Assembly: GCA_003235715.1 (NCBI GenBank)
Contig: QJVM01000148.1
Location: 1 to 58,489 of the forward strand
Reading direction: 5' to 3'
Length of the DNA: 58,489 nt
Source of the DNA: Nitrospirota bacterium
GTDB lineage: Bacteria > Nitrospirota > Thermodesulfovibrionia > SZUA-242
Shown: piece by piece, positions 19,629-30,504 of the stretch
Numbering within the stretch: position 1 is the first letter of the stretch
How the letters are laid out: the number at the start of each line of letters is the position of its first letter
Notes under the pieces: model-generated
Seen by the model: the letters and a program-made list of their open reading frames with translations, nothing else
What the model was told of the DNA's origin: nothing
Database searches by the model: none
Made by a program: the position numbers and the translations under genes

Positions 19629-20183
19629 ATGAGCAAACTCATCATCACGGTTCTGGGCCAGGACCGCCCCGGAATTCTGGCAGGGGTTTCGGGTGTTCTC
19701 TTCCGTCTGGACTGCAATATCGAGAACGTGAGCCAGACCATCCTGCAATCTCAGTTTGCCGGTATCTTTATCGCCACGAGTCCCCCGGATACGTCGACCC
19801 AGAGCGTGCTGTACCATCTCCAGGAAGAGTTGCTTCCCCGGAACCTGTATGTGCATATCACGGAGATGGACGGCGGACAGGAGGAGATTTCCTTTCCCGA
19901 GAGTGATCCCTTCGTCATCACCACCATGGGGCCTGACCGTAAAGGGATCGTGGCGGCTTTCACGGCCATTCTGGCCCGACATCAGGTTAATGTGACTCAG
20001 CTTCACGCCGTCTTCAAGGGAGGAGACGACCCTCACAACAACACCATGATTTACCAGGTGGACATACCACGAAACATCGACCAGAAGAGCTTTCGGTTCG
20101 AGCTCCGGGAAAAGGCCGCGGAATTTCATCTGGATATTTCCATTCAGCATAGGGACATATTCGAATCGATTCACCGTGTCTGA
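19629..20183 (+). CDS. Tandem ACT-domain protein (UPF0237-like)
   Basis: Two ACT-like units (IITVLGQDRPGILAGVSGVL..., VITTMGPDRKGIVAAFTAIL...). The conserved partner of the downstream UPF0210 gene. Confidence 0.8.
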   Translation: MSKLIITVLGQDRPGILAGVSGVLFRLDCNIENVSQTILQSQFAGIFIATSPPDTSTQSVLYHLQEELLPRNLYVHITEMDGGQEEISFPESDPFVITTMGPDRKGIVAAFTAILARHQVNVTQLHAVFKGGDDPHNNTMIYQVDIPRNIDQKSFRFELREKAAEFHLDISIQHRDIFESIHRV

Positions 20184-20196
20184 AATGAGATAGGCT

Positions 20197-21570
20197 ATGC
20201 TGGACCACAACGAGATTATCGCCACCCTTGAAATGGTGCGCAACGAGCACCTGGATGTTCGGACCGTGACCCTCGGGGTGAGTTTGCTGGACTGCGCTTC
20301 CGATGATCTCGCGCGCCTTCAGGACAATCTCTACAGACGGATCACCGAGACGGCCCGGGAACTTGTTCCGTGCTGTGACGACGTCGCGGAGAAGTACGGC
20401 ATTCCCATTGTCAACAAACGCATCTCGGTTAGTCCGATGGCGGTGGTTGGCGCGGGTTTTTCGGACAGCGATTTCGTCCGTATGGCTGAAACCCTCGACC
20501 GGGCGGCACGCGAAGTGGGCGTGAATTTCATCGGCGGTTTCACCGCGCTCGTGGAAAAGGGGATGGCCCGGGGAGACCGCGCTCTCATCGAGGCCATTCC
20601 TGTTGCGCTGGCCGAAACGGAGCGCGTGTGCGCTTCGGTCAACGTGGCCTCCACGCAGGCCGGGATCAATATGGATGCCGTGCTCACCATGGGGCGCACC
20701 ATAAAGGAGGCGGCTGAACGGACCCGTCACCTTGACGGTCTCGCCTGTGCCAAGCTCTGTGTTTTCTGCAACATTCCACCGGACATTCCGTTCATGGCCG
20801 GAGCCTATCTCGGAATCGGCGAGCCTGACGCCGAGATCAATGTGGGGGTCAGCGGGCCGGGAGTCGTGAAGAAGGCCGTGGACCGGGCCCTGGAAAAGGA
20901 CCCGGGCCTGGATCTGGGGTCCATTTCGGAAGTTATCAAGAAGACAGCGTACAAGGTGACTCGGGTGGGTGAACTCATCGGCAGGGAGGTCGCGAAACGG
21001 CTCTCGATTCGTTTCGGAGTGGTGGACCTTTCCCTGGCCCCAACTCCGCACGTGGGAGACAGTGTGGGCGAGATATTTCAAAGCCTGGGCCTGAAATCCA
21101 TCGGTCTTCCAGGATCCACGGCCGTGCTGGCCATGCTCAACGATGCGGTGAAGAAGGGCGGCGCCTTTGCCAGTTCGCACGTGGGCGGATTGAGCGGCGC
21201 CTTCATCCCGGTCAGCGAGGACCTTAACATTGCCGAAGCCGCCGCCTCGGGAGCATTGACCCTGGAGAAACTTGAGGCCATGACCAGTGTTTGTTCCGTG
21301 GGACTGGATATGGTGGCTGTTCCCGGGGATACGACGGCAGAGACGATTTCCGCGATTATCGCGGACGAGATGGCCATTGGGATGATTAACGGCAAGACCA
21401 CGGCTGTTAGACTCATCCCCGTACCGGGAAAAGGGGCAGGGGAGACCGCCCGGTTCGGAGGGTTGCTCGGGGGCAGCGTGATTCTCCCGGTCCGGGGAGC
21501 CGGGACACAAAACCGATTCGTGGGCCTGGGCGGGCGGATTCCCGCGCCTGTGCAGGGCCTGAAGAATTAG
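20197..21570 (+). CDS. UPF0210/PFL-family protein (DUF711)
   Basis: 457 aa starting ...[27 protein letters not shown]..., characteristic of the UPF0210 family that pairs with a small ACT protein. Confidence 0.85.
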
Positions 21571-21595: not shown

Positions 21596-22018
21596 TTAGA
21601 GGTCCAGTGTGACCTCTCCTTCGAGTCCTCCGTTCAACGCCCGAACATAGAGTCCGTGGTAGGTGGCCGCCTTGACCAGAAGCCGGCGCTCATGCCGGTC
21701 CGGCACCATCTCTTCACCGTGAAGAGTGGCCTCAAGGTTCGTTCCGGAAACAAGGCGGATGTCGGCGCCGGCCGGAAGAAACTCCCGCGTGTCGAGCAGA
21801 AAGACGAGCTCGTTCAACCAGGCCACGAGCAGGTCTTCCCGGTCCGGGGCCTCGAGCCGGACCTCGATACGGTCAACCGGGCGCACCGATGCGGGGTCTG
21901 TTACAAGCGAGAGAAATCCTCTGAGCGCAGCCCGAAGGAGGCCCGCCAGATCCCCGGCCCGAAGCCGGAGGCGGACGTCACCGGCTGAATCGAGCTGGGT
22001 GTAAACCTCCGGCTCCAT
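21596..22018 (-). CDS. Archease
   Basis: 140 aa from the internal Met (MEPEVY...) with the VKAATYHGLYV C-terminal signature. The longer 175-aa ORF adds a low-complexity N-terminus. Confidence 0.75.
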   Translation of the reverse strand: MEPEVYTQLDSAGDVRLRLRAGDLAGLLRAALRGFLSLVTDPASVRPVDRIEVRLEAPDREDLLVAWLNELVFLLDTREFLPAGADIRLVSGTNLEATLHGEEMVPDRHERRLLVKAATYHGLYVRALNGGLEGEVTLDL

Positions 22019-22153
22019 GGGGCTTAGCGTAGCCCCCGGGCAGTAAGCTGTCAATTGACCGGAGCGTCCTCTTTTGAGGGGGGACGGGGTTTGCGTGGAC
22101 CTTTGAGGGAGAATACTTGACAATAATTGTTGGTCTTTCTAAACTTGAGCCCT

Positions 22154-22603
22154 ATGCTCAAGCTTTCAACCAAGGGGCAGTACGGGGTTAGGGCCATGTT
22201 CGAAGTTGCCAGGAACTATGGCAAGGGCACCACGACCATCAAGGAGATTTCTGAAAGACAGGATGTTTCAGTCTCCTATCTCGAGCAGCTCCTCAATCGG
22301 CTCCGTCGAGCAGGCCTGGTGGACAGTGTGAAGGGCCCGGGCGGCGGCTATGTGCTGACGCGTGAGCCTGCGCAGGTCACCATCGGAGATATCCTCCGGG
22401 TGCTCGAGGGGCCGGTGGCCATCACCAGTTGTATGGATCCTTCTGCGGACGGGTGTGAACGGGTGGACTCCTGTGTGGCCCGGCTGCTCTGGAAATCGCT
22501 TGGGGAACGGATTGAGAAATTTCTTGATCAGATCACACTCCAGGAACTTCTGGAGGAAGAGAAGAACATCCTCTCTGGAACCCTTCGAATAGGACGCCTA
22601 TGA
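22154..22603 (+). CDS. iscR: Rrf2-family transcriptional regulator (IscR-like)
   Basis: MLKLSTKGQYGVRAMFEVA wHTH N-terminus and a three-Cys cluster (ITSCMDPSADGCERVDSC). Sits directly upstream of nifS-nifU. Confidence 0.85.
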   Translation: MLKLSTKGQYGVRAMFEVARNYGKGTTTIKEISERQDVSVSYLEQLLNRLRRAGLVDSVKGPGGGYVLTREPAQVTIGDILRVLEGPVAITSCMDPSADGCERVDSCVARLLWKSLGERIEKFLDQITLQELLEEEKNILSGTLRIGRL

Positions 22604-23766
22604 ATCCCGTATATGCCGACCACATAGCCACGACGCCATGCCGGCCCGAAGTCTTCGAGGCCATGAAGCCTTATTTCATGGAGCATTTCGGGAATCCGCT
22701 CAGCCTTCATGATTTCGGCCAGACGGCCCGCGATGCCATCGAGGCGGCGCGGGAGCAGGTGGCCGGGCTCATTGGTGCCAAAACAGAGGAGATTCTATAC
22801 ACCAGTTCGGGCACCGAGTCCTGCAACTTTGCGATCAAGGGAATGACGCACGCGTACCAGAAGAAAGGCCGACATATCGTGACCTCTTCGGTGGAACATC
22901 ACGCGGTGGCGAACCCGGTCAAGTTTCTGGAGAAAAACGGCTGTGAAGTGACGACCATTCCGGTAGATTCCGCAGGCCGGGTAGACCCGGACCAGGTGGC
23001 TCGGGCCCTGCGCGATGACACGGCGCTGGTCAGCATCATGCTCGCCAACAACGAGATCGGTACAATTCAGCCGGTGGCCGAGATCGGAAGGATAACCCGT
23101 GAGAGAGGAATTGTGTTCCATACCGATGCGTCCTGTGCAGTCGGAAACGTCCCGGTCGACGTAGAGGCCCTTCAGGTCGATGCCCTGAGCCTTTCGGGGC
23201 ACAAGTTCTTCGGGCCCAAGGGAGTCGGCGCCCTTTACCTGCGCAAGGGGACGCGCATAACGCCCCTCATTCACGGGGGCATCCAGGAAGGCGGGCGCCG
23301 TGCCGGCGCGGATAACGTGCCGGGTATCGTGGGGCTGGGCGCGGCCGCGGTACTGGCACGGGAGGAGATGAACGACCGGGTTGCCAGGGTGACGGACCTT
23401 CGGAACCGGCTGATCTCTGGAATTCTGGAACGGGTTGACGAGATTACCTACAACGGCCATCCCGAGTTGCGGCTTCCGGGAAACGTGAACATTGCGGTCA
23501 ACTATGTCGAGGGGGAGTCGCTCCTGCTTCTGCTTATGCATAAGGGGATTCTTGCTTCGAGCGGATCCACCTGTACCTCTCGTGCCCTCAAGGCCTCCGG
23601 CGTGCTTACGGCTATAGGGCTTTCGGAACAGGCCTGCCAGGGTTCTCTGCAGATGACCCTCGGACCGGGCAACACGGATGCGGAGGTGGACTATATTCTG
23701 GACGTACTTCCGGAGATCGTATCGAAGTTGCGGGCCATGTCGCCGCTGTACCATAGGAAGGACTAA
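22600..23766 (+). CDS. nifS: Cysteine desulfurase (NifS/IscS type)
   Basis: PLP-Lys motif SLSGHKFFGPKG and catalytic loop SSGSTCTS. 388 aa. Confidence 0.93.
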   Translation: MNPVYADHIATTPCRPEVFEAMKPYFMEHFGNPLSLHDFGQTARDAIEAAREQVAGLIGAKTEEILYTSSGTESCNFAIKGMTHAYQKKGRHIVTSSVEHHAVANPVKFLEKNGCEVTTIPVDSAGRVDPDQVARALRDDTALVSIMLANNEIGTIQPVAEIGRITRERGIVFHTDASCAVGNVPVDVEALQVDALSLSGHKFFGPKGVGALYLRKGTRITPLIHGGIQEGGRRAGADNVPGIVGLGAAAVLAREEMNDRVARVTDLRNRLISGILERVDEITYNGHPELRLPGNVNIAVNYVEGESLLLLLMHKGILASSGSTCTSRALKASGVLTAIGLSEQACQGSLQMTLGPGNTDAEVDYILDVLPEIVSKLRAMSPLYHRKD

Positions 23767-23804
23767 TCGAGCGGCACGGGCGCTCGGCAGGACAGGAGGA
23801 AATC

Positions 23805-24191
23805 ATGCTTTATTCGGAACAGGTCATGGAACATTTCATGAATCCGCGCAACGTCGGGGAACTCGAGAATCCGGACGGGGTGGGACAGGAGGGCAATCCC
23901 ACCTGTGGGGACGTCATGCAGATCCATATCCGGGTCGTTGACGGAACGATTGCAGATTGCCGCTTCAAGACCTTCGGGTGTGGGTCCGCCATCGCCATAT
24001 CCAGCCAGATCACGGAGATGGCCAAGGGCAAGACCCTTGAAGAGGCTCTGGCCATTACCAAGGAGGACGTGGCTTCGCAACTGGGGGGGCTTCCGCCCCA
24101 GAAGATGCATTGCTCCAACCTGGGCGCCGCGGCGCTTCGGAAAGCCATTGAGGATTATATGGCCCGCCGGCCCGCGGAACTGGTTCAGTAG
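23805..24191 (+). CDS. nifU: Fe-S cluster assembly scaffold (IscU/NifU N-terminal type)
   Basis: GNPTCGDVMQIH, FKTFGCGSAIA and KMHCSNLG, i.e. the three scaffold Cys residues. Confidence 0.93.
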   Translation: MLYSEQVMEHFMNPRNVGELENPDGVGQEGNPTCGDVMQIHIRVVDGTIADCRFKTFGCGSAIAISSQITEMAKGKTLEEALAITKEDVASQLGGLPPQKMHCSNLGAAALRKAIEDYMARRPAELVQ

Positions 24192-24205
24192 GATTTCCCG
24201 CCAAA

Positions 24206-24442
24206 ATGGATGACGCATCTTCCCGGAGTTTTCTGGACTGCATCGGACTTTTCTGTCCCAACCCGATCATCCAGACCTCAAAGCGCCTGAAGGAACTTCC
24301 CCCGGGAGGTCTTCTGGAAGTGGCGGCCGACGATGAAACCTTTCCCAAGGACATCCCGGAATGGTGCGCGAAAATGGGGTACGAGCTGCTTGAACTCACG
24401 AATGATGGAGGCGAGTTTCGGGCCCTGATACGGAAACCCTGA
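24206..24442 (+). CDS. tusA: TusA-family sulfurtransferase
   Basis: 78 aa with the CPxP motif (LDCIGLFCPNPII). Confidence 0.85.
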   Translation: MDDASSRSFLDCIGLFCPNPIIQTSKRLKELPPGGLLEVAADDETFPKDIPEWCAKMGYELLELTNDGGEFRALIRKP

Positions 24443-24465
24443 AGTCGGGAACAGAACCCGAACCC

Positions 24466-24954
24466 ATGAACAAGTCACGCACCACCAGGATGACCTCGTC
24501 CATGACGTTTCGAAAGCCGAGCCTTTCGGACGTGCGACTCATTCAGGCTCTGATCAACCGGAATGCAAGCAAGCAGATCATGCTGCCGCGTTCCCTGCAT
24601 GATGTCTATGAGATGCTCAGAGACTTCATCGTCTGTGAATCCTCCGGGCAGATTGTCGGGGTATGCGCCCTGCATATCACCTGGGAAGACCTTGGGGAAG
24701 TCCGGTCCCTTGCAGTGGAGGATGCGTTTCAGAAACAGGGTATCGGGAGCGCGCTGGTGAAGAAGTGTCTTGCGGAAGCCCGCCGCCTTGGCATCCGGCG
24801 GGTCTTCACGCTGACCTACGTCCCGGAGTTCTTCCACCGGCTCGGCTTTCTGGAAGTGGACAAGGCGACCCTGCCCCACAAGGTATGGGCCGATTGCATC
24901 AAGTGTCACCATTTTCCCGATTGCAACGAAGTGGCTCTTCTCAGGGAACTCTGA
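24466..24954 (+). CDS. GNAT-family N-acetyltransferase (ArgA C-terminal-like)
   Basis: VRSLAVEDAFQKQGIGSALV acetyl-CoA-binding motif (Q/RxxGxG/A). The exact start among several Mets is uncertain. Confidence 0.8.
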   Translation: MNKSRTTRMTSSMTFRKPSLSDVRLIQALINRNASKQIMLPRSLHDVYEMLRDFIVCESSGQIVGVCALHITWEDLGEVRSLAVEDAFQKQGIGSALVKKCLAEARRLGIRRVFTLTYVPEFFHRLGFLEVDKATLPHKVWADCIKCHHFPDCNEVALLREL

Positions 24955-25077
24955 GAAGACATATGAAGGAGACCGTGCGGTTGACAAAGCCTCTGCACGC
25001 CATTAGTATGGGCCCATCACAAGTTGACGCGGTCGAGGCCATCGACCCGGGAAAGGACTGAAAGGAAGGCAGCCCTG

Positions 25078-25464
25078 ATGAACCCCGAAGAGCTGAAGTA
25101 TCACAAGGAGCACACGTGGGCCCGGATCGAGGACGGCAAGGCCCGGGTTGGGATTACGGACTATGCTCAGGACTCTCTCGGCGAGGTGGTTTACGTGGAA
25201 CTCCCCGAAACCGGGGCCGAGGTACGGTCCGGCGAGGATCTCGGGGAGATCGAATCAACCAAGGCCACGTCGGCCATTATCAGTCCGGTTTCCGGAAAGG
25301 TCCTTGAGGTCAACGAGGAACTGAACGATTCCCCCGAGATCGTGAATGAAGATCCCTACGGCAAAGGTTGGGTCGCCATCATCGAGCTTGATGGAAACGG
25401 GGGAGTCGGGGATCTTATGGATGCAGGCCAATACGGCACCTTTGTCGTGGAAGAGGCCGGTTAG
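25078..25464 (+). CDS. gcvH: Glycine-cleavage H protein / lipoyl carrier protein (GcvH or LbpA-like)
   Basis: YHKEHTWARIEDGKARVGITDYAQDSLGEVVYVELPE...GEIESTKA, including the lipoyl-Lys motif ES-x-KA. Confidence 0.9.
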   Translation: MNPEELKYHKEHTWARIEDGKARVGITDYAQDSLGEVVYVELPETGAEVRSGEDLGEIESTKATSAIISPVSGKVLEVNEELNDSPEIVNEDPYGKGWVAIIELDGNGGVGDLMDAGQYGTFVVEEAG

Positions 25465-25684
25465 GGAAGGTTTTCGAAGCATCCGGAAGAGGTTCTTCCC
25501 GCCCCGGGAAAGTGCAGAGACCTCGGCTCACCGGCCATGCAGCAGGGACCGGGCAGACCGGGGTTTTTTGGTGTTCTTGCCTTGAGCGGACTTTCCACGA
25601 CCGTTCGTCTTGGTAGTCTGGCTCGAAGGGATATTTCCATCCCCGTCGTAGGGATTCCTGATTCAGCAAACGGAGGTTGGGCGC

Positions 25685-27070
25685 ATGAAGATCGTCGTTA
25701 TCGGTGCGGGCCCGGGCGGGTATGTCGCGGCGTTGCGCGCCGCGCAACGGGGCGCCGAGGTTACGGTGATAGAGGCAGAGGAGGTGGGCGGAACTTGTCT
25801 GAACTGGGGCTGCATCCCCACCAAGGCCCTGCTCGCTTCCGCGGAAACGTTCGCGCGGGTGAAACGGTGCGCGGATTACGGCCTTGAGGTATCCGGTGAG
25901 GTATTCGCACGCCTTGATCGCATCATGGCCCGAAAGGACAAGATCGTTTCCACCCAGGCCAAGGGAATCCGAAGCCTGTTCAAGAGCAGAGGGGTCACCC
26001 TCATGGAAGGCCGGGCCCGTCTTCAGTCACCCCGTTCGGTTGAGGTTTCCATGCAGGACGGAACACGGCGGCGAGTCGAAGGGGATGCCCTTCTTGTGGC
26101 CACGGGTTCCCGGCCCGCCTCGATCCCGGCCTTCCCATTTGATGGAAAGCGGGTCATCTCAAGCAATGAGGCGCTTCGTCTTTCGGAGGTGCCGAGAAGC
26201 CTCATGATTGTGGGGGCCGGCGTCATCGGTTGCGAGTTCGCCTTCATCTTCCGGGAACTGGGAAGTGAGGTGACCCTGATTGAAGCTATGCCGCGGGCCG
26301 TGTCCACCGAGGACCACGAGATATCCGAGATTCTTGAACGGGAGCTCAAGAAGAACAAGATCAAGCTCCTCAAGGATACGAAGATCCAGTCCATAGAGGT
26401 GACAGAGGAACAGGTAACGGCCCGCATTGAATCCGGTGCGTCGCTGGAGGCAAAGGTCGCGCTGGTATCGATTGGACGGGCGGCCAATACCCTGGACCTG
26501 GGCCTTGAGGATGTGGGTGTGAAATGCGGGGCCCGGGGGGAAATTGTGGTGGATGATCACCTGAGAACCAGCGTCGAGGGAGTCTACGCGGTGGGTGATG
26601 TGACCGGGGGGCTGATGCTGGCCCATGTGGCCTCCAAGCAGGGACTCATTGCCGTGGAGAACATCATGGGCGGAGATGTCCGCATGAACCATGAGGTCGT
26701 TCCTGCCGCGATATTCACCCACCCCGAAATCGGGTCCGTCGGGTTACGGGAACACCAGTGCGCGGAGCGCGGGCAGCGGATTAGGATCGGACGCTTTCCT
26801 TTCCGTGGTCTTGGGAAAGCCCATGCCATGGGCGAGATTGCCGGGATGGTCAAGGTCATTGCCGAGGATGGAACGGACCGGGTTCTGGGGGTTCACATCA
26901 TCGGTCCTCATGCCTCGGACCTCGTTCACGAGGCAGCCCTGGCCATGGAGAAAGGGCTCACGGTCCAGGATATCGCCGGAATGATTCATGCGCATCCCAC
27001 ACTTTCCGAAGGATTGATGGAAGCGTGTGAAGACGTGCACGGCATGGCAATTCATTTACCCCCAAAATAG
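25685..27070 (+). CDS. lpdA: Dihydrolipoyl dehydrogenase
   Basis: VVIGAGPGGYVAA (FAD), redox disulfide GGTCLNWGCIPTK, the NAD motif VGAGVIGCEFA, and HAHPTLSE at the C-terminus. Confidence 0.93.
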   Translation: MKIVVIGAGPGGYVAALRAAQRGAEVTVIEAEEVGGTCLNWGCIPTKALLASAETFARVKRCADYGLEVSGEVFARLDRIMARKDKIVSTQAKGIRSLFKSRGVTLMEGRARLQSPRSVEVSMQDGTRRRVEGDALLVATGSRPASIPAFPFDGKRVISSNEALRLSEVPRSLMIVGAGVIGCEFAFIFRELGSEVTLIEAMPRAVSTEDHEISEILERELKKNKIKLLKDTKIQSIEVTEEQVTARIESGASLEAKVALVSIGRAANTLDLGLEDVGVKCGARGEIVVDDHLRTSVEGVYAVGDVTGGLMLAHVASKQGLIAVENIMGGDVRMNHEVVPAAIFTHPEIGSVGLREHQCAERGQRIRIGRFPFRGLGKAHAMGEIAGMVKVIAEDGTDRVLGVHIIGPHASDLVHEAALAMEKGLTVQDIAGMIHAHPTLSEGLMEACEDVHGMAIHLPPK

Positions 27071-27207
27071 GGTCATAAAAAAAAGAAATAGGCTTCCGGG
27101 CAGAGCAAGTTCAGCCGCATCCCATACGGTTTTTTTCATTTTAAAAACGTTGGTTTACTCCATCGAAAAGCCTGCGAAACTGGCCGGAATTATGGGGTTT
27201 TCCTTTC

Positions 27208-27235
27208 TTGACAAAGCAAAAACACAGCCTATAAA
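27208..27235 (+). promoter_or_regulatory. Sigma-70-like promoter for the dsrH-E-F-tusA operon
   Basis: TTGACA (27208-27213), a 16-nt spacer, then TATAAA (27230-27235), in an AT-rich gap. Followed by the inverted repeat GTTCGCG-TAT-CGCGAAC (27246-27262). Confidence 0.45.
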
Positions 27236-27286
27236 CTTTGCCACTGTTCGCGTATCGCGAACCAACGAAAACATGGAGGTGGGAGG

Positions 27287-27586
27287 ATGAAGCTGGGTGT
27301 AATCCTTAGCGAGGCCGTGAGAACGGAAGAGACCTACGATCGGCTTCAAGCGGAGAAGCTGAGTGTCGTCCTTGCCGGGAACGGGATTTATCATGCTGTA
27401 AGCAAGAAGAACGGCAAGGCGTCGGAGGTTCTCAGCAAGAAGGCGGATTTCTACGTATTGACCGAAGACCTCGAGAGCCGGGGCTTCACAGCAGGCGACC
27501 TGGTGGATTCCAAGATCAAACCCATTGGATTTGACGGGCTGGTGGACCTCATTATGGACCAGCACGACAAGTTCATCTGGCTATAG
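27287..27586 (+). CDS. DsrH/TusB-family sulfur relay protein
   Basis: 99 aa. FYVLTEDLESRGF and the C-terminal ...DGLVDLIMDQHDKFIWL align by eye with E. coli TusB (VYALNEDLIARGL ... DFVRLTVKHPSQMAW). Confidence 0.75.
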   Translation: MKLGVILSEAVRTEETYDRLQAEKLSVVLAGNGIYHAVSKKNGKASEVLSKKADFYVLTEDLESRGFTAGDLVDSKIKPIGFDGLVDLIMDQHDKFIWL

Positions 27587-27596
27587 GAGGGGAACC

Positions 27597-27956
27597 ATGG
27601 GAAAACTGACCATCGGAGTTTTTTCGTCTCTCGTGGGCGGCACCACGCTTGATTTTTCGATCAGGCTGGCGAAGGCGGCCAAGGACAAGGGCCACGACGT
27701 ATACGTCTGGACATCGGGCAACGGAACCATGCTTTCCAAGACCGGCCAGCGGGCGTTCAAGGACTATTCGTATCTGGCCAAGATCTGCGAGGAACTTGCG
27801 GCCAAGGGAGTCGAATTTGTGGCTTGCGAGGCCTGTGCTGAAGCCCGCGGGTATCACAAGGAAGATACCTTCAGCGTGTTCAAGCGCCACAGCATGGACT
27901 GGTATCTGGCCAAGTGTTGCCAGAGCGACAAGATTCTTCACATAGGAGGCGAGTAA
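27597..27956 (+). CDS. DsrE/TusD-family sulfur relay protein
   Basis: 119 aa. FVACEACAEARGY aligns with the TusD Cys78 loop (ICVAAALRRGV). RBS TAGGAGGGG. Confidence 0.75.
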   Translation: MGKLTIGVFSSLVGGTTLDFSIRLAKAAKDKGHDVYVWTSGNGTMLSKTGQRAFKDYSYLAKICEELAAKGVEFVACEACAEARGYHKEDTFSVFKRHSMDWYLAKCCQSDKILHIGGE

Positions 27957-27957
27957 G

Positions 27958-28371
27958 ATGGCAAGAAAACTTAAGCAGCTTTACCTGGTCCAGCGGCCTC
28001 CCATCAAGAGCGAGAACCCGAAGCTGGCCTATACGCATGCCATGGCCAGCCAGACCGCCGAAATCTACCTTGAAGACGGGGAAGAGGTTATTCCGACCCT
28101 GGCCATGGTGGGTGACGGTGTCTACAACGTGGTGAACAACCAGCAGCTGATGAAGCATTATGGACTGAACAGCAACGAGAACCACGTCCAGATGGCCCTG
28201 CTCATCGACCTCAAGGTTCTGGTCTGTAAGGAAGACCTGGAGGCCCGGGGAATCAGCGCGGACCGTCTGGCCGACGGAAGCGCCCTGGGGGCGGACATGA
28301 CCATCGAGGTGGTGCCGTTCAGCGAAATTCAGAAAGAAATGGAAGCAACGGACCAGATCCTCTGCTTCTGA
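27958..28371 (+). CDS. DsrF/TusC-family sulfur relay protein
   Basis: 137 aa. VLVCKEDLEARGI aligns with TusC WVCAASLRERGL, and the C-terminus DQILCF resembles TusC ...DVILRF. Confidence 0.7.
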   Translation: MARKLKQLYLVQRPPIKSENPKLAYTHAMASQTAEIYLEDGEEVIPTLAMVGDGVYNVVNNQQLMKHYGLNSNENHVQMALLIDLKVLVCKEDLEARGISADRLADGSALGADMTIEVVPFSEIQKEMEATDQILCF

Positions 28372-28418
28372 GAATTTGTCTAGCCGTTAGCTAAATCCCA
28401 CAGTAAAGGAGATATGTA

Positions 28419-28670
28419 ATGTCAGATCTTAAATCCGAAACACCGGCTGAAACTCTGGATGTGCTGGGAAGGGTATGTCCCTATCCCCTTCTTCTGACGA
28501 AGAAACAGCTTGAGAAGATGGGCAGCGGAACGGTGCTGAAGGTGCTCACCGATGCGCCGGCCTCTGCCGAGGATTCCATCCCGCGGTATGCCGAGAAGCA
28601 GGGCTATGCCTTCCAGTCCGTCAAGGACGATGCGAACGGTCGCTGGGAACTCTACATCAAGAAGAGCTAA
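28419..28670 (+). CDS. tusA: TusA-family sulfurtransferase (second copy)
   Basis: 83 aa with the CPxP motif (LDVLGRVCPYPLL). GGAG RBS. Confidence 0.85.
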   Translation: MSDLKSETPAETLDVLGRVCPYPLLLTKKQLEKMGSGTVLKVLTDAPASAEDSIPRYAEKQGYAFQSVKDDANGRWELYIKKS

Positions 28671-28699: not shown

Positions 28700-28729
28700 C
28701 CCCGGTGTCTAGGCGCCGGGGTTTTTTTT
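28700..28729 (+). terminator. Rho-independent terminator after the dsrHEF-tusA operon
   Basis: CCCCGGTG-TCTAGG-CGCCGGGG stem-loop followed by T8. Confidence 0.7.
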
Positions 28730-28794
28730 GGAACGCGTGCCAGGCGTGCTACTCTGGTATCAAATATTTTCAAGAGGGAGGTGGGACAAGGTTT

Positions 28795-29628
28795 ATGTCT
28801 CTCTTTGACTATCTCAAGCCGGTGGAAACCATGGCGTCACCGGACGTAAAGCGCCTGCTGGATGAGAAGGGGCCCGATGGGGTAAACCTTATAGACGTCC
28901 GCCAACCCCGGGAGTACGAATCCGGACATCTCGCCGGGGCGGAATTGATCCCCGTGGCTGAACTCCAGGACCGTCTGAGGGATCTGGATAAATCCAAACC
29001 CACCGTCGCGTACTGAAGGTCGGGGGTGCGCAGCCGGGCGGCTGCGGCGGTACTGAAGGGAGCCGGCTTCCGGGAGGTCTACAGCATGGAGGGCGGTATT
29101 GACGCCTGGCATGGAGGTGTGGCGCTCGGATCTCCCGACCGAAGCGTGGCGTACTTCCTCGAGGCCGCTTCGCTTGACCATATGCTGGCCCTCGCCTGGT
29201 CGATGGAGGAGGGCGCCTTGCGATTCTATTCAGCGGCAGCTGAAAAGAGCACCACCCCGGAGGCCGAGACCCTGTTTCAACAACTGGTTACGGCCGAGAT
29301 TCATCACAAGGCTTCCGTTGAGAAACTGAGGGAAAGGCTGGCCCCCGGGGAATCCTCTTTCGATGAACTGGTTGGAGAGCCGAACCTCGTCGGGAATATC
29401 ATGGAAGGAGGGTTCTCCACGGAGGAGATCATCAAGCGTTACGCGGCCCTTGATCCCGAGGATGTTCTGGCTTTTGCCATGGCCATGGAAACGACCTCCT
29501 TCGACCTTTACCTTCGTCTCGGCCGGACGGTGAAGGAGGACGAGGCCACCCGTGCCTTCCAGTCTCTTGCTCATGAAGAAAGAAAACATCTCGACCGGCT
29601 GGCCCAGGCCATGGATCAGGGGTTCTGA
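28795..29628 (+). CDS. Rhodanese (Sec at the catalytic position) fused to a ferritin-like diiron domain; Sec encoded by TGA 29014-29016
   Basis: ORFs ending at 29016 and starting at 29026 share a frame. Joined, they read ...DKSKPTVAY-U-RSGVRSRAAAAVLKGAGFREVYSMEGGIDAW, i.e. the rhodanese loop C-R-S-G-x-R-S with U in place of C. The C-terminal half carries E / ExxH / E / ExxH (MEEGA, AEIHH, AMETT, HEERKH). Confidence 0.75.
29029..29046 (+). promoter_or_regulatory. SECIS-like stem-loop for the rhodanese/ferritin-like gene
   Basis: CGCAGCC-GGGC-GGCUGCG forms a 7-bp stem starting 12 nt after the UGA. Confidence 0.5.
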
Positions 29629-29637
29629 GCACGGAAG

Positions 29638-30504
29638 TTGTTGAAAGCCTTGAAAGGCCTCGGGAGAAGCGTCATGACTTCCGTCATCGTCTTTCTCATC
29701 GTTCTGCCCCTGGTATCTTTTGGGGCGCTCTACCTGGCTCAGGATGGTCTGGTTTTCCCGGGCAGTCCGGCCCACCTGGAGAACCATGCGCTCGCCGAGA
29801 AGGCCTTTCCGGGCAGCGAGATTCGTATCGAACTTCCTGACGGAAAACAGGTCCATGGCTGGTTCATTCAGAACGGCCCCGAAGTTCCCCTTCCGCTTCT
29901 TATTTACTATGGAGGGAACGCGGAGGACGTATCCTGGGTCCTCCAGGATCTCCCCCGCTACAGGGGATGGTGTCTCCTGCTTGTGAATTACCGGGGGTTT
30001 GGGTTGAGTGAAGGTCGGCCAAGCGAGCGTCACTTGCTGGACGATGCCCTTTTCCTCTATGACCGATTTTCCGCCCGGAGCGAAGTGGATCCTGAACGTA
30101 TCGTTCTGATGGGACGGAGCCTGGGTTCCGGTATAGCGGCTCACGTGGCCTCGGCCCGAAAAGTACGGGGGGTCATCATGGTGTCCCCGTATGACAGCCT
30201 TGCCGCTGTGGGCCAGAAGGCCTTTCCCTGGATACCGGTGAAGCTTTTTCTCAGGCACCGTTTTGAAGCGCTGGCGCTCGCTCCTCGGCTGAAGATGCCT
30301 CTTCTGGCGGTCCTCGCGGAACAGGATGAGGTTATTCCTGCCGAGAATTCATGGAGGTTGATCAAGGCCTGGGGCGGGCCCGTGCAGGTTACTGAAATCG
30401 CAAATACGGACCACAACAACATCACGTGGGGCGGGGACTATTGGGAATCAATCAGAGAGTTCCTCGAAACCATGCGGTCGGAGCCGGTATCAGGCGTTCA
30501 TTGA
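29638..30504 (+). CDS. Alpha/beta hydrolase with an N-terminal membrane anchor
   Basis: GRSLGSG nucleophile elbow and a DH pair near the C-terminus (NTDHNN). N-terminal TM helix VIVFLIVLPLVSFGALYL. The start may be the ATG at 29674. Confidence 0.8.
   Translation: MLKALKGLGRSVMTSVIVFLIVLPLVSFGALYLAQDGLVFPGSPAHLENHALAEKAFPGSEIRIELPDGKQVHGWFIQNGPEVPLPLLIYYGGNAEDVSWVLQDLPRYRGWCLLLVNYRGFGLSEGRPSERHLLDDALFLYDRFSARSEVDPERIVLMGRSLGSGIAAHVASARKVRGVIMVSPYDSLAAVGQKAFPWIPVKLFLRHRFEALALAPRLKMPLLAVLAEQDEVIPAENSWRLIKAWGGPVQVTEIANTDHNNITWGGDYWESIREFLETMRSEPVSGVH

Follow-up and report, generated by a model that had tools for sequence, protein, structure and literature searches.

We analyzed a 58-kb stretch of DNA (58,489 nucleotides, contig QJVM01000148.1, here called the window) from a Nitrospirota bacterium; statements about the source genome are limited to this window. 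Positions 28795 to 29628 of its forward strand read as one gene of 277 codons plus a stop codon, which an initial annotation had described as a rhodanese with UGA in place of the catalytic cysteine codon, fused to a diiron ferritin-like domain. Judged from sequence comparison, this is very probably a single selenoprotein gene, in which a rhodanese with selenocysteine (Sec) at residue 74 is joined to a ferritin-like bundle. The locus contains the following features.

28774-28785 (+), Shine-Dalgarno-like sequence GAGGGAGGTGGG, 9 nucleotides 5′ of ATG 28795.
28795-29628 (+), predicted coding sequence of the Sec74 rhodanese/ferritin-like fusion, from translation, Pfam matches to Rhodanese and Rubrerythrin, and continuous Cys homologues of 270 to 295 amino acids.
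28846-29112 (+), rhodanese domain, residues 18 to 106 (Pfam E value, 9.8e-21).
29010-29019 (+), 10-nucleotide direct repeat GTACTGAAGG, with a second copy at 29050-29059; a perfect match, judged incidental.
29014-29016 (+), UGA codon 74, probably read as Sec at the catalytic position and aligned with the invariant Cys of full-length homologues.
29029-29046 (+), candidate hairpin of the selenocysteine insertion sequence (SECIS) type, from comparative evidence across TGA forms.
29113-29160 (+), flexible interdomain linker, residues ~107 to 122, with a predicted local distance difference test score (pLDDT) of <50 at residues 108 to 120 in the AlphaFold model of the homologue P0010.
29161-29607 (+), rubrerythrin/erythrin-type ferritin-like four-helix bundle, residues ~123 to 271, from Pfam, invariant columns, and AlphaFold helices.
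29206-08, 29296-98, 29305-07, 29488-90, 29578-80, and 29587-89 (+), putative dimetal ligands E138, E168, H171, E232, E262, and H265, respectively, all in invariant columns.

The frame opens at ATG 28795 behind the ribosome-binding site and runs for 73 codons before it meets TGA 29014-29016 as codon 74 (...KPTVAY-TGA-RSGVRSRAAAAVLKGAGFREVYSMEGGIDAW). It then stays open for 203 further codons, up to the terminal TGA at 29626-29628. Direct reading and translation agree with the initial annotation on the start, its ribosome-binding site, and the length of the open extension.

A first protein search returned homologues of 274 to 283 residues, with 30 to 45% identity and both domains in a single chain. 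Cys occupies the UGA column in all 21 full-length homologues, within the loop Y-C-x-x-G-x-R-S, placing the TGA exactly at the catalytic Cys position, as had been proposed. When the joined protein is aligned with these Cys homologues, both domains are continuous across this position, and no homologue was seen that ends before the RSGxRS segment. The six closest matches are pieces of 192 to 203 residues whose N terminus, RSRAAA, lies immediately past the UGA column; in the DNA of each, a 73-codon rhodanese open reading frame (ORF) lies upstream and ends in an in-frame TGA at codon 74. The nearest relatives (loci L001 to L007) share this TGA at codon 74. TGA forms are also found on the complete chromosomes of two metagenome-assembled genomes, CP070783.1 and CP070719.1.

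When one genome per GTDB species was scanned with a profile, 259 relatives emerged, and 80 loci were kept; the profile locus search was based on full-length sequences only. The comparison set consisted of 88 sequences, namely, 87 loci (80 of them from the species-genome scan) and the window. Codon 74 is TGA in 67 of the 80 kept species genomes and TGC or TGT in 13; over all 88 sequences, there are 75 TGA forms and 13 Cys forms. A second profile search gave full-length proteins with Cys at this position in 111 of 113 cases and W in the other 2, and none of the 113 has U or X. Most of the family has Sec (84% of sampled species), and Cys is found in scattered minority branches, with at least five independent Sec/Cys switches. 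The family is present in at least 259 species genomes, belonging to Nitrospirota, Desulfobacterota/Thermodesulfobacteriota, Deferrimicrobiaceae, and Geobacterales/Desulfuromonadales. Across 83 aligned sequences, purifying selection is strong on both halves of the protein. As TGA terminates 8 of the 17 neighboring genes (this gene included), the genetic code is standard and recoding is site specific.

The initial annotation had also pointed to a 7-bp GC hairpin after the UGA, which turned out to be shared by all TGA forms. In the window, its arms are CGCAGCC (29029-29035) and GGCUGCG (29040-29046), enclosing the loop GGGC (29036-29039), and the stem begins 12 nucleotides past the UGA. The core stem of the family begins 13 nucleotides past the UGA and pairs GCAGC (29030-29034) with GCUGC (29041-29045) around a 6-nucleotide loop, CGKNCN; the RNAalifold consensus is the same stem. 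All five core pairs are present in 75 of the 75 TGA forms and in only 1 of the 13 Cys forms (locus L032). The 58-kb window contains a single instance of the pattern TGA-N13-GCAGC-N6-GCTGC (expected, 0.01), and each of 70 related loci likewise contains exactly one, always at the homologous UGA.

Codon usage over the stem differs between the two forms in the same way. Counted from the UGA, TGA forms have CGC at codon +5 (73/75), AGC at codon +6 (73/75), and GCT at codon +9 (75/75), whereas the Ala codon at +9 is variable in the 13 Cys forms (GCG, GCA, GCC, GCT, GGG, and GGT). Synonymous-codon entropy in 70 TGA forms is 0.07 at R79, 0.04 at S80, and 0.00 at A83, compared with 0.58, 0.37, and 0.89, respectively, in the Cys forms. 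Elsewhere in the gene, it is 0.6 to 1.0 at nearly all conserved residues, and the collapse is confined to codons 79 to 83 of the TGA forms. Bacterial SECIS elements follow the rules of spacing and of an apical-loop G set out in the bSECISearch literature. The hairpin described here is a stem-loop shortly 3′ of the UGA that is conserved as RNA and has a G in its apical loop, and it would qualify as such an element. With high probability, then, the UGA at 29014-29016 is recoded to Sec through a SECIS hairpin inside the coding sequence.

Two loci show individual changes in this region. In L032 (position 8220; CP070737.1, Nitrospiraceae bin398), a TGT Cys form has a complete stem, GCAGU...GCUGC, which looks like a very recent Sec-to-Cys replacement. 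In L046 (3336-3370), a C-G pair has become U-A through a compensatory change, via CGC>CGT plus the nonsynonymous GCG>ACC (Ala>Thr); in this case, the protein sequence appears to yield to the RNA structure.

The 10-nucleotide direct repeat GTACTGAAGG that brackets the hairpin had been reported as well. Its perfect copies are indeed present, but they are kept in L001 and lost in L002 and the wider family, and the two copies lie in different reading frames. We ruled out the repeat as a functional element, since it is not conserved and its copies are out of frame with each other. A scan of the window for other read-through TGA codons was too noisy to be useful at 58% GC.

Several results weigh against reading the UGA as Sec. 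The single-sequence folding energy of the hairpin is ordinary for a GC-rich stretch (z = 0.98), and the case consequently rests on comparison across loci and not on thermodynamics. No Rfam SECIS model matched at the gathering threshold over the whole window, and an E-value search of 28960-29110 returned only noise; Rfam appears to be without a suitable bacterial SECIS model. As the stem is nearly invariant, classic covariation is minimal, amounting to a single compensatory case plus some wobble changes. The 58-kb window has no tRNA genes of any kind, tRNA-Sec included, and no visible selA, selB, selC, or selD. No SelD was found by tblastn in the window or within 8 kb of the 87 loci, using an E. 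coli SelD query.

Public gene calls treat the TGA forms differently, either splitting them into a 73-amino-acid and an ~200-amino-acid protein or translating the TGA as W. The split calls (P0001 to P0003, P0020, P0024, and P0026) amount to two separate genes, a 73-residue rhodanese fragment that ends at TGA 29014 and a 200-residue ferritin-like protein that could start at the in-frame GTG at 29026. Such an arrangement is hardly credible. The 73-residue piece would end one residue short of the catalytic loop and lack the last third of its domain, while the putative second gene would open with the conserved rhodanese segment RSRAAAA...SMEGGIxAW. A profile built from the C-terminal part, searched against 1.84 billion representative proteins, gave 162 clusters at an E value of ≤1e-30, the best 150 of which were examined. 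Sixty-nine of these were pieces of ~175 to 215 residues that start inside the rhodanese domain, with either RSRAAA or the M of SMEGG at their N terminus, and almost all the others were full-length chains with the active-site Cys. No stand-alone ferritin-like version with its own N terminus was present among the best 150 of the 162 clusters. The possibility, raised with the initial annotation, that the downstream part is an independent gene thus fails, because the short pieces all begin inside the rhodanese domain. The continuous chains of the Cys homologues, and an RNA hairpin that is frozen only in TGA forms, likewise argue against two genes.

One further protein, P0112 (299 amino acids), has the same ferritin-like domain at residues 130 to 299 behind a weak match to PALP (pyridoxal-phosphate-dependent, cysteine-synthase type) and has no rhodanese domain. 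It could represent another sulfur-related fusion, or the gene call could be chimeric or partial.

That the TGA reflects a pseudogene, a sequencing error, or an alternative code (UGA as Trp, Gly, or Cys) is practically negligible as an explanation: two database proteins with W suggest that some pipelines read the TGA as sense, but 75 independent loci of several phyla share this TGA at an identical codon position, both halves are under the purifying selection described above, TGA is a regular terminator of the neighboring genes and of this gene, and W was never found where the Cys forms have TGC or TGT. The two proteins, P0228 and P0306, are public full-length gene calls, and their W at the active-site position is almost certainly a TGA translated under a UGA = Trp code by a metagenome pipeline.

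As none of the 113 full-length database proteins has U or X, public annotation does not recognize the Sec forms of this family. NCBIfam has no model that captures the fusion protein: its matches to NF041203 rhodanese_LYCAU (33 bits; cutoff, 115) and NF045694 TsoB (26.3 bits; cutoff, 805) are both below threshold. With no curated model to cover the family, which spans hundreds of species, its misannotation is systematic. TGA at codon 74 together with the GCAGC-N6-GCUGC hairpin provides a simple rule for repairing the records.

To characterize the protein, we ran Pfam on the joined 277-residue sequence, with Cys replacing the stop. Residues 18 to 106 match Rhodanese with 74.6 bits (cutoff, 22.2), and the C-terminal part matches Rubrerythrin (PF02915) with 48.4 bits (cutoff, 22.8). 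The active-site loop, Y73-U74-R-S-G77-V-R79-S80-R81, is of the six-residue sulfurtransferase type, C/U-x-x-G-x-R-(S/T). Conservation was computed across 83 sequences with a threshold of ≥95%, and nearly all the residues listed here are invariant: in the rhodanese domain, D34, V35, R36, E40, Y41, H45, G48, P53, Y73, U/C74, G77, R79, S80, and R81, and in the C-terminal part, E138, Y145, E168, H171, E204-G205-G206, E232, D237, Y239, F255, E262, and H265. The C-terminal ligand pattern is E/ExxH/E/ExxH, with an E-x6-Y pair in each half; Y145, E204-G-G, D237, and Y239 are family-specific invariants of the ferritin-like domain. All six canonical dimetal ligands are kept, which supports the prediction of a diiron site.

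We obtained AlphaFold models of the Cys homologue P0010 and of the window's own C-terminal 200 residues. P0010 has two confidently predicted domains joined by a disordered linker (residues 108 to 120), with a pLDDT of 82.6 and a predicted template modeling score (pTM) of 0.61. The C-terminal 200 residues of the window protein are modeled as a four-helix bundle (pLDDT, 79). The nearest Foldseek matches of the rhodanese domain are 3tp9, 5ve3, 3ict, 3nt6, and 8a56 (E values, 4e-7 to 2e-4; root mean square deviation, 1.2 to 2.2 Å). PDB relatives of the ferritin-like domain are 2fzf (phmmer E value, 1.7e-7; also the top Foldseek match), 1vjx, and 2oh3, and NCBIfam gives a partial match to the ferritin-like region of MbfA. 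The diiron ferritin-like domain that the initial annotation had recognized by its ligand pattern is thus backed by Pfam, invariant ligands, the modeled bundle, and structural matches. The fusion protein has no rubredoxin domain or CxxC pairs (Pfam reports only Rhodanese and Rubrerythrin), and because the rubredoxin domain is missing, it is not a true rubrerythrin.

We clustered the ORFs around all loci and found a single recurrent neighbor, a flavoprotein of ~380 residues. Its gene is on the same strand and immediately upstream in 43 of the 87 loci, which come from several phyla and include both Sec and Cys forms; the distance is usually 0 to 35 nucleotides. The two-gene module occurs, among others, in the cultured Geomonas sp. 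RF6 and Geoalkalibacter ferrihydriticus. The best NCBIfam match of the flavoprotein, over its full length, is TIGR03169 Nterm_to_SelD (E value, 4e-86), and at 289.6 bits against a cutoff of 310, the sequence points to a close sister group of TIGR03169 and not to a certified member. It has flavin adenine dinucleotide (FAD) and NAD(P)H motifs, its sole conserved Cys is in a GGGDC motif with no conserved Cys pair, and it is similar to reductases of rubredoxin and ferredoxin, among them NorW and HcaD. This NADH-oxidoreductase family has been tied to SelD by gene fusion, with the proposal that it provides SelD with a reduced selenium compound, and SirA/TusA-like proteins have also been tied to SelD (Zhang et al. 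2008, PMC2432076).

In three loci, L022 (6840-7971), L057 (6839-7967), and L081 (179-1301), the upstream flavoprotein gene is split by +1 frame changes, which are probably assembly errors and not further recoding. In L043 (4168-7866), the upstream ORFs resemble, by eye, an encapsulin shell protein, a hemerythrin-like protein, and a rubrerythrin, which hints, for this genome alone, at a context of oxidative stress or iron.

In the window, the selenoprotein gene has the following neighbors.

22127-22603 (+), Rrf2 regulator.
22600-23766 (+), cysteine desulfurase.
23805-24191 (+), IscU/NifU_N.
24206-24442 (+), TusA.
24466-24954 (+), GNAT.
25024-25464 (+), GcvH.
25685-27070 (+), dihydrolipoyl-dehydrogenase-like Lpd.
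27287-27586 (+), dsrH, from Pfam DsrH.
27597-27956 (+), dsrE, from Pfam DsrE.
27958-28371 (+), dsrE/F-like, from Pfam DsrE.
28419-28670 (+), tusA, from Pfam TusA.
28700-28729 (+), terminator-like hairpin CCCCGGUG...CGCCGGGG followed by T8, between tusA and the selenoprotein gene, from sequence reading.
29674-30504 (+), alpha/beta hydrolase, directly 3′ of the selenoprotein gene.

The genes at 22127-28670 (+) form a long same-strand array for sulfur mobilization and trafficking. The GcvH-like lipoyl carrier plus Lpd near DsrE/TusA recalls the LbpA-associated sulfur-oxidation (sHdr) context, but Hdr genes themselves were not seen in the vicinity. A divergent archease gene, 21596-22123 (-), adjoins the Rrf2 gene on its upstream side, and beside it is a large ORF at 20014-21510 (-) that has no Pfam match and is a doubtful gene call. 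On the other side of the selenoprotein gene, the alpha/beta hydrolase begins 46 nucleotides past the stop codon; it belongs to an ORF cluster present in six loci, including L002 (3425-4246) and L034 (2487-3368), and may be cotranscribed with the selenoprotein gene in the window.

The dsrH-E-F-tusA order that had been reported to precede the fusion gene directly is real in the window. It recurs only in L001 and L002, giving 3 of the 88 sequences with the window included, and on this count, we ruled out a dsrEFH-tusA link as a trait of the family. The placement is specific to this lineage, and it is not a direct adjacency, as the terminator-like hairpin intervenes. This hairpin folds at -21.6 kcal/mol with its flanks and is not listed by a consensus terminator scan.

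What the fusion protein does can be suggested only tentatively, by analogy: it may be a chalcogen (sulfur or selenium) carrier coupled to a redox-active diiron site. Sec74 would take up a sulfane sulfur or selenium atom and hold it as a selenopersulfide, R-Se-S(e)-. Compared with a Cys persulfide, this group would be the stronger nucleophile and would also leave more readily. The TusA/DsrEFH relay just upstream, itself fed by the cysteine desulfurase further upstream, would be the likely donor in the window lineage. The tethered diiron domain would serve as the redox partner that resolves the Sec74 adduct, and in about half of the family, where the two genes form an operon, the NAD(P)H flavoprotein would supply the electrons. 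The net reaction would be an NAD(P)H-driven reductive release or handover of the chalcogen, analogous to those of the CoADR-RHD and Npsr persulfide reductases. The identity of the gene and this functional model, taken together, form what we judge to be a likely best explanation of the locus.

The carrier model has points against it. To our knowledge, no diiron protein acts on persulfides. The terminator-like hairpin and T8 part the selenoprotein gene from tusA, and the window lineage has no flavoprotein nearby. Loci of the other half of the family, in which the flavoprotein is missing, have heterogeneous contexts. Given the disordered linker and the pTM of 0.61, the orientation of the domains to each other is not confidently predicted and is not established.

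The fusion could also be a rubrerythrin-type NAD(P)H peroxidase/oxidase for oxidative-stress defense, in which the flavoprotein would reduce the diiron site and the diiron site would reduce H2O2 or O2; the Sec-rhodanese would then be a redox relay or a peroxide-sensing thiol/selenol and not a sulfur carrier. This is unlikely, although the Pfam Rubrerythrin match, the E-x6-Y plus ExxH signature in both halves, and a flavoprotein of the NorW and HcaD kind are what one would expect of it. The hosts are mostly anaerobes, in which rubrerythrins are common, and redox or antioxidant roles predominate among bacterial selenoproteins (PMC9312934). The missing rubredoxin domain speaks against such a peroxidase, as do the CRSGxRS loop of sulfurtransferase type and a structure nearest to persulfide-handling rhodanese domains. 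Moreover, the window copy adjoins TusA/DsrEFH, and ORF clustering showed no recurrent oxidative-stress regulator in the neighborhoods.

A selenium-mobilizing system, quite unlikely in our estimate, would have the rhodanese carry a perselenide or selenotrisulfide, which the SelD-N-terminal-like flavoprotein would reduce, supplying selenophosphate synthetase with selenide. In its favor, rhodanese can carry selenium in vitro. The best match of the conserved neighbor is to TIGR03169, the domain fused to SelD, but the score below the cutoff makes it a sister group. The role proposed for the TIGR03169-type family and the tie between SirA/TusA-like proteins and SelD (PMC2432076) would fit, with two tusA genes upstream in the window; yet selD was absent within 8 kb of the 87 loci in the tblastn search described above, the cysteine desulfurase plus IscU in the window context point to sulfur, and the diiron domain would be left without a role.

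In its most specific form, a distinctly improbable one, the fusion and the flavoprotein would constitute a dedicated system for the NAD(P)H-driven capture of selenium (or sulfane sulfur) on a selenol and its reduction to selenide for selenophosphate synthetase. If true, this would supply a missing physiological step of selenium delivery upstream of SelD in many anaerobes, and a diiron centre would act on a chalcogen-chalcogen bond, for which there is no known precedent among ferritin-like proteins.

More generally, a persulfide-carrying selenol tethered to a diiron centre, with a flavoprotein of the SelD-associated type as its operon partner, points to uncharacterized chalcogen redox chemistry that may bear on cellular sulfur or selenium mobilization. 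The family is also a natural Sec/Cys series that could reveal what selenium adds to sulfur-transfer chemistry. Cys forms occur in cultured organisms (Geomonas sp. RF6 [LPW11_20280], Geoalkalibacter ferrihydriticus, and Desulfuromonas sp. CSMB_57), which makes the family experimentally approachable.

Selenoproteome surveys have included Sec-containing rhodanese-like proteins since 2005-2007, and reviews from 2022 and 2026 give five Sec-rhodanese forms, two of them with a UxxG motif (PMC13188914 for the table entries), in agreement with what the initial annotation had stated. The catalogued proteins are like the present one in having Sec at the catalytic Cys of a PF00581/COG0607-type rhodanese with UxxG (here, U-R-S-G), in coming from deltaproteobacterial or other anaerobic lineages, and in having a function that is predicted only. 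Unlike it, they are described by the rhodanese domain only, with no ferritin/rubrerythrin fusion or flavoprotein partner (the exemplar MBM9537886.1 may itself be a fused form). No paper in the literature searched, the coverage of which was incomplete, brings selenoprotein, rhodanese, and rubrerythrin together; within the same coverage, we found no description of the fusion to a diiron domain, of the predominance of Sec, or of the flavoprotein as a partner. The architecture stands in databases without comment, JGI labeling Cys forms "rhodanese-related sulfurtransferase/rubrerythrin." The family is real, widespread, misannotated, and biochemically unexplored, and it does not represent a new principle.

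The rhd-tusA-dsrE2 and TusA/DsrEFH systems are the cytoplasmic sulfur relay of sulfur oxidizers. The window resembles them in having a rhodanese gene near tusA and DsrE-family genes. It differs in gene order, in the terminator that lies between, and in the restriction of the arrangement to 3 of the 88 sequences, and its cluster contains cysteine desulfurase, IscU, GcvH, and Lpd instead of dsrAB or sHdr.

The ferritin-like domain has its counterparts in the COG1633 erythrin/rubrerythrin proteins, namely, 2fzf from P. furiosus, TM1526 from T. maritima (1vjx), 2oh3, and the erythrin domain of MbfA, of which the solved ones are uncharacterized. They have the same four-helix bundle and E/ExxH/E/ExxH ligand set. 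However, those proteins either stand alone or are fused to VIT1, with functions that are unknown or related to iron handling, and none is joined to a rhodanese. The family described here is also set apart by an invariant E204-G-G loop motif, D237, and Y239.

Fusions of rhodanese domains that process persulfides include PDO-rhodanese (5ve3 and 3tp9), CoADR-RHD (3ict), the NADH-dependent persulfide reductase Npsr (3nt6), and a CoA-persulfide reductase (8a56). As proposed for the present protein, a persulfide-carrying rhodanese is tethered to a redox catalyst, and CoADR and Npsr use NAD(P)H flavoprotein chemistry. Here, in contrast, a putative diiron four-helix bundle takes the place of the metallo-beta-lactamase-fold dioxygenase or flavoprotein as the tethered partner; the flavoprotein forms a polypeptide of its own and has no redox-active Cys, and the predicted catalytic residue is Sec.

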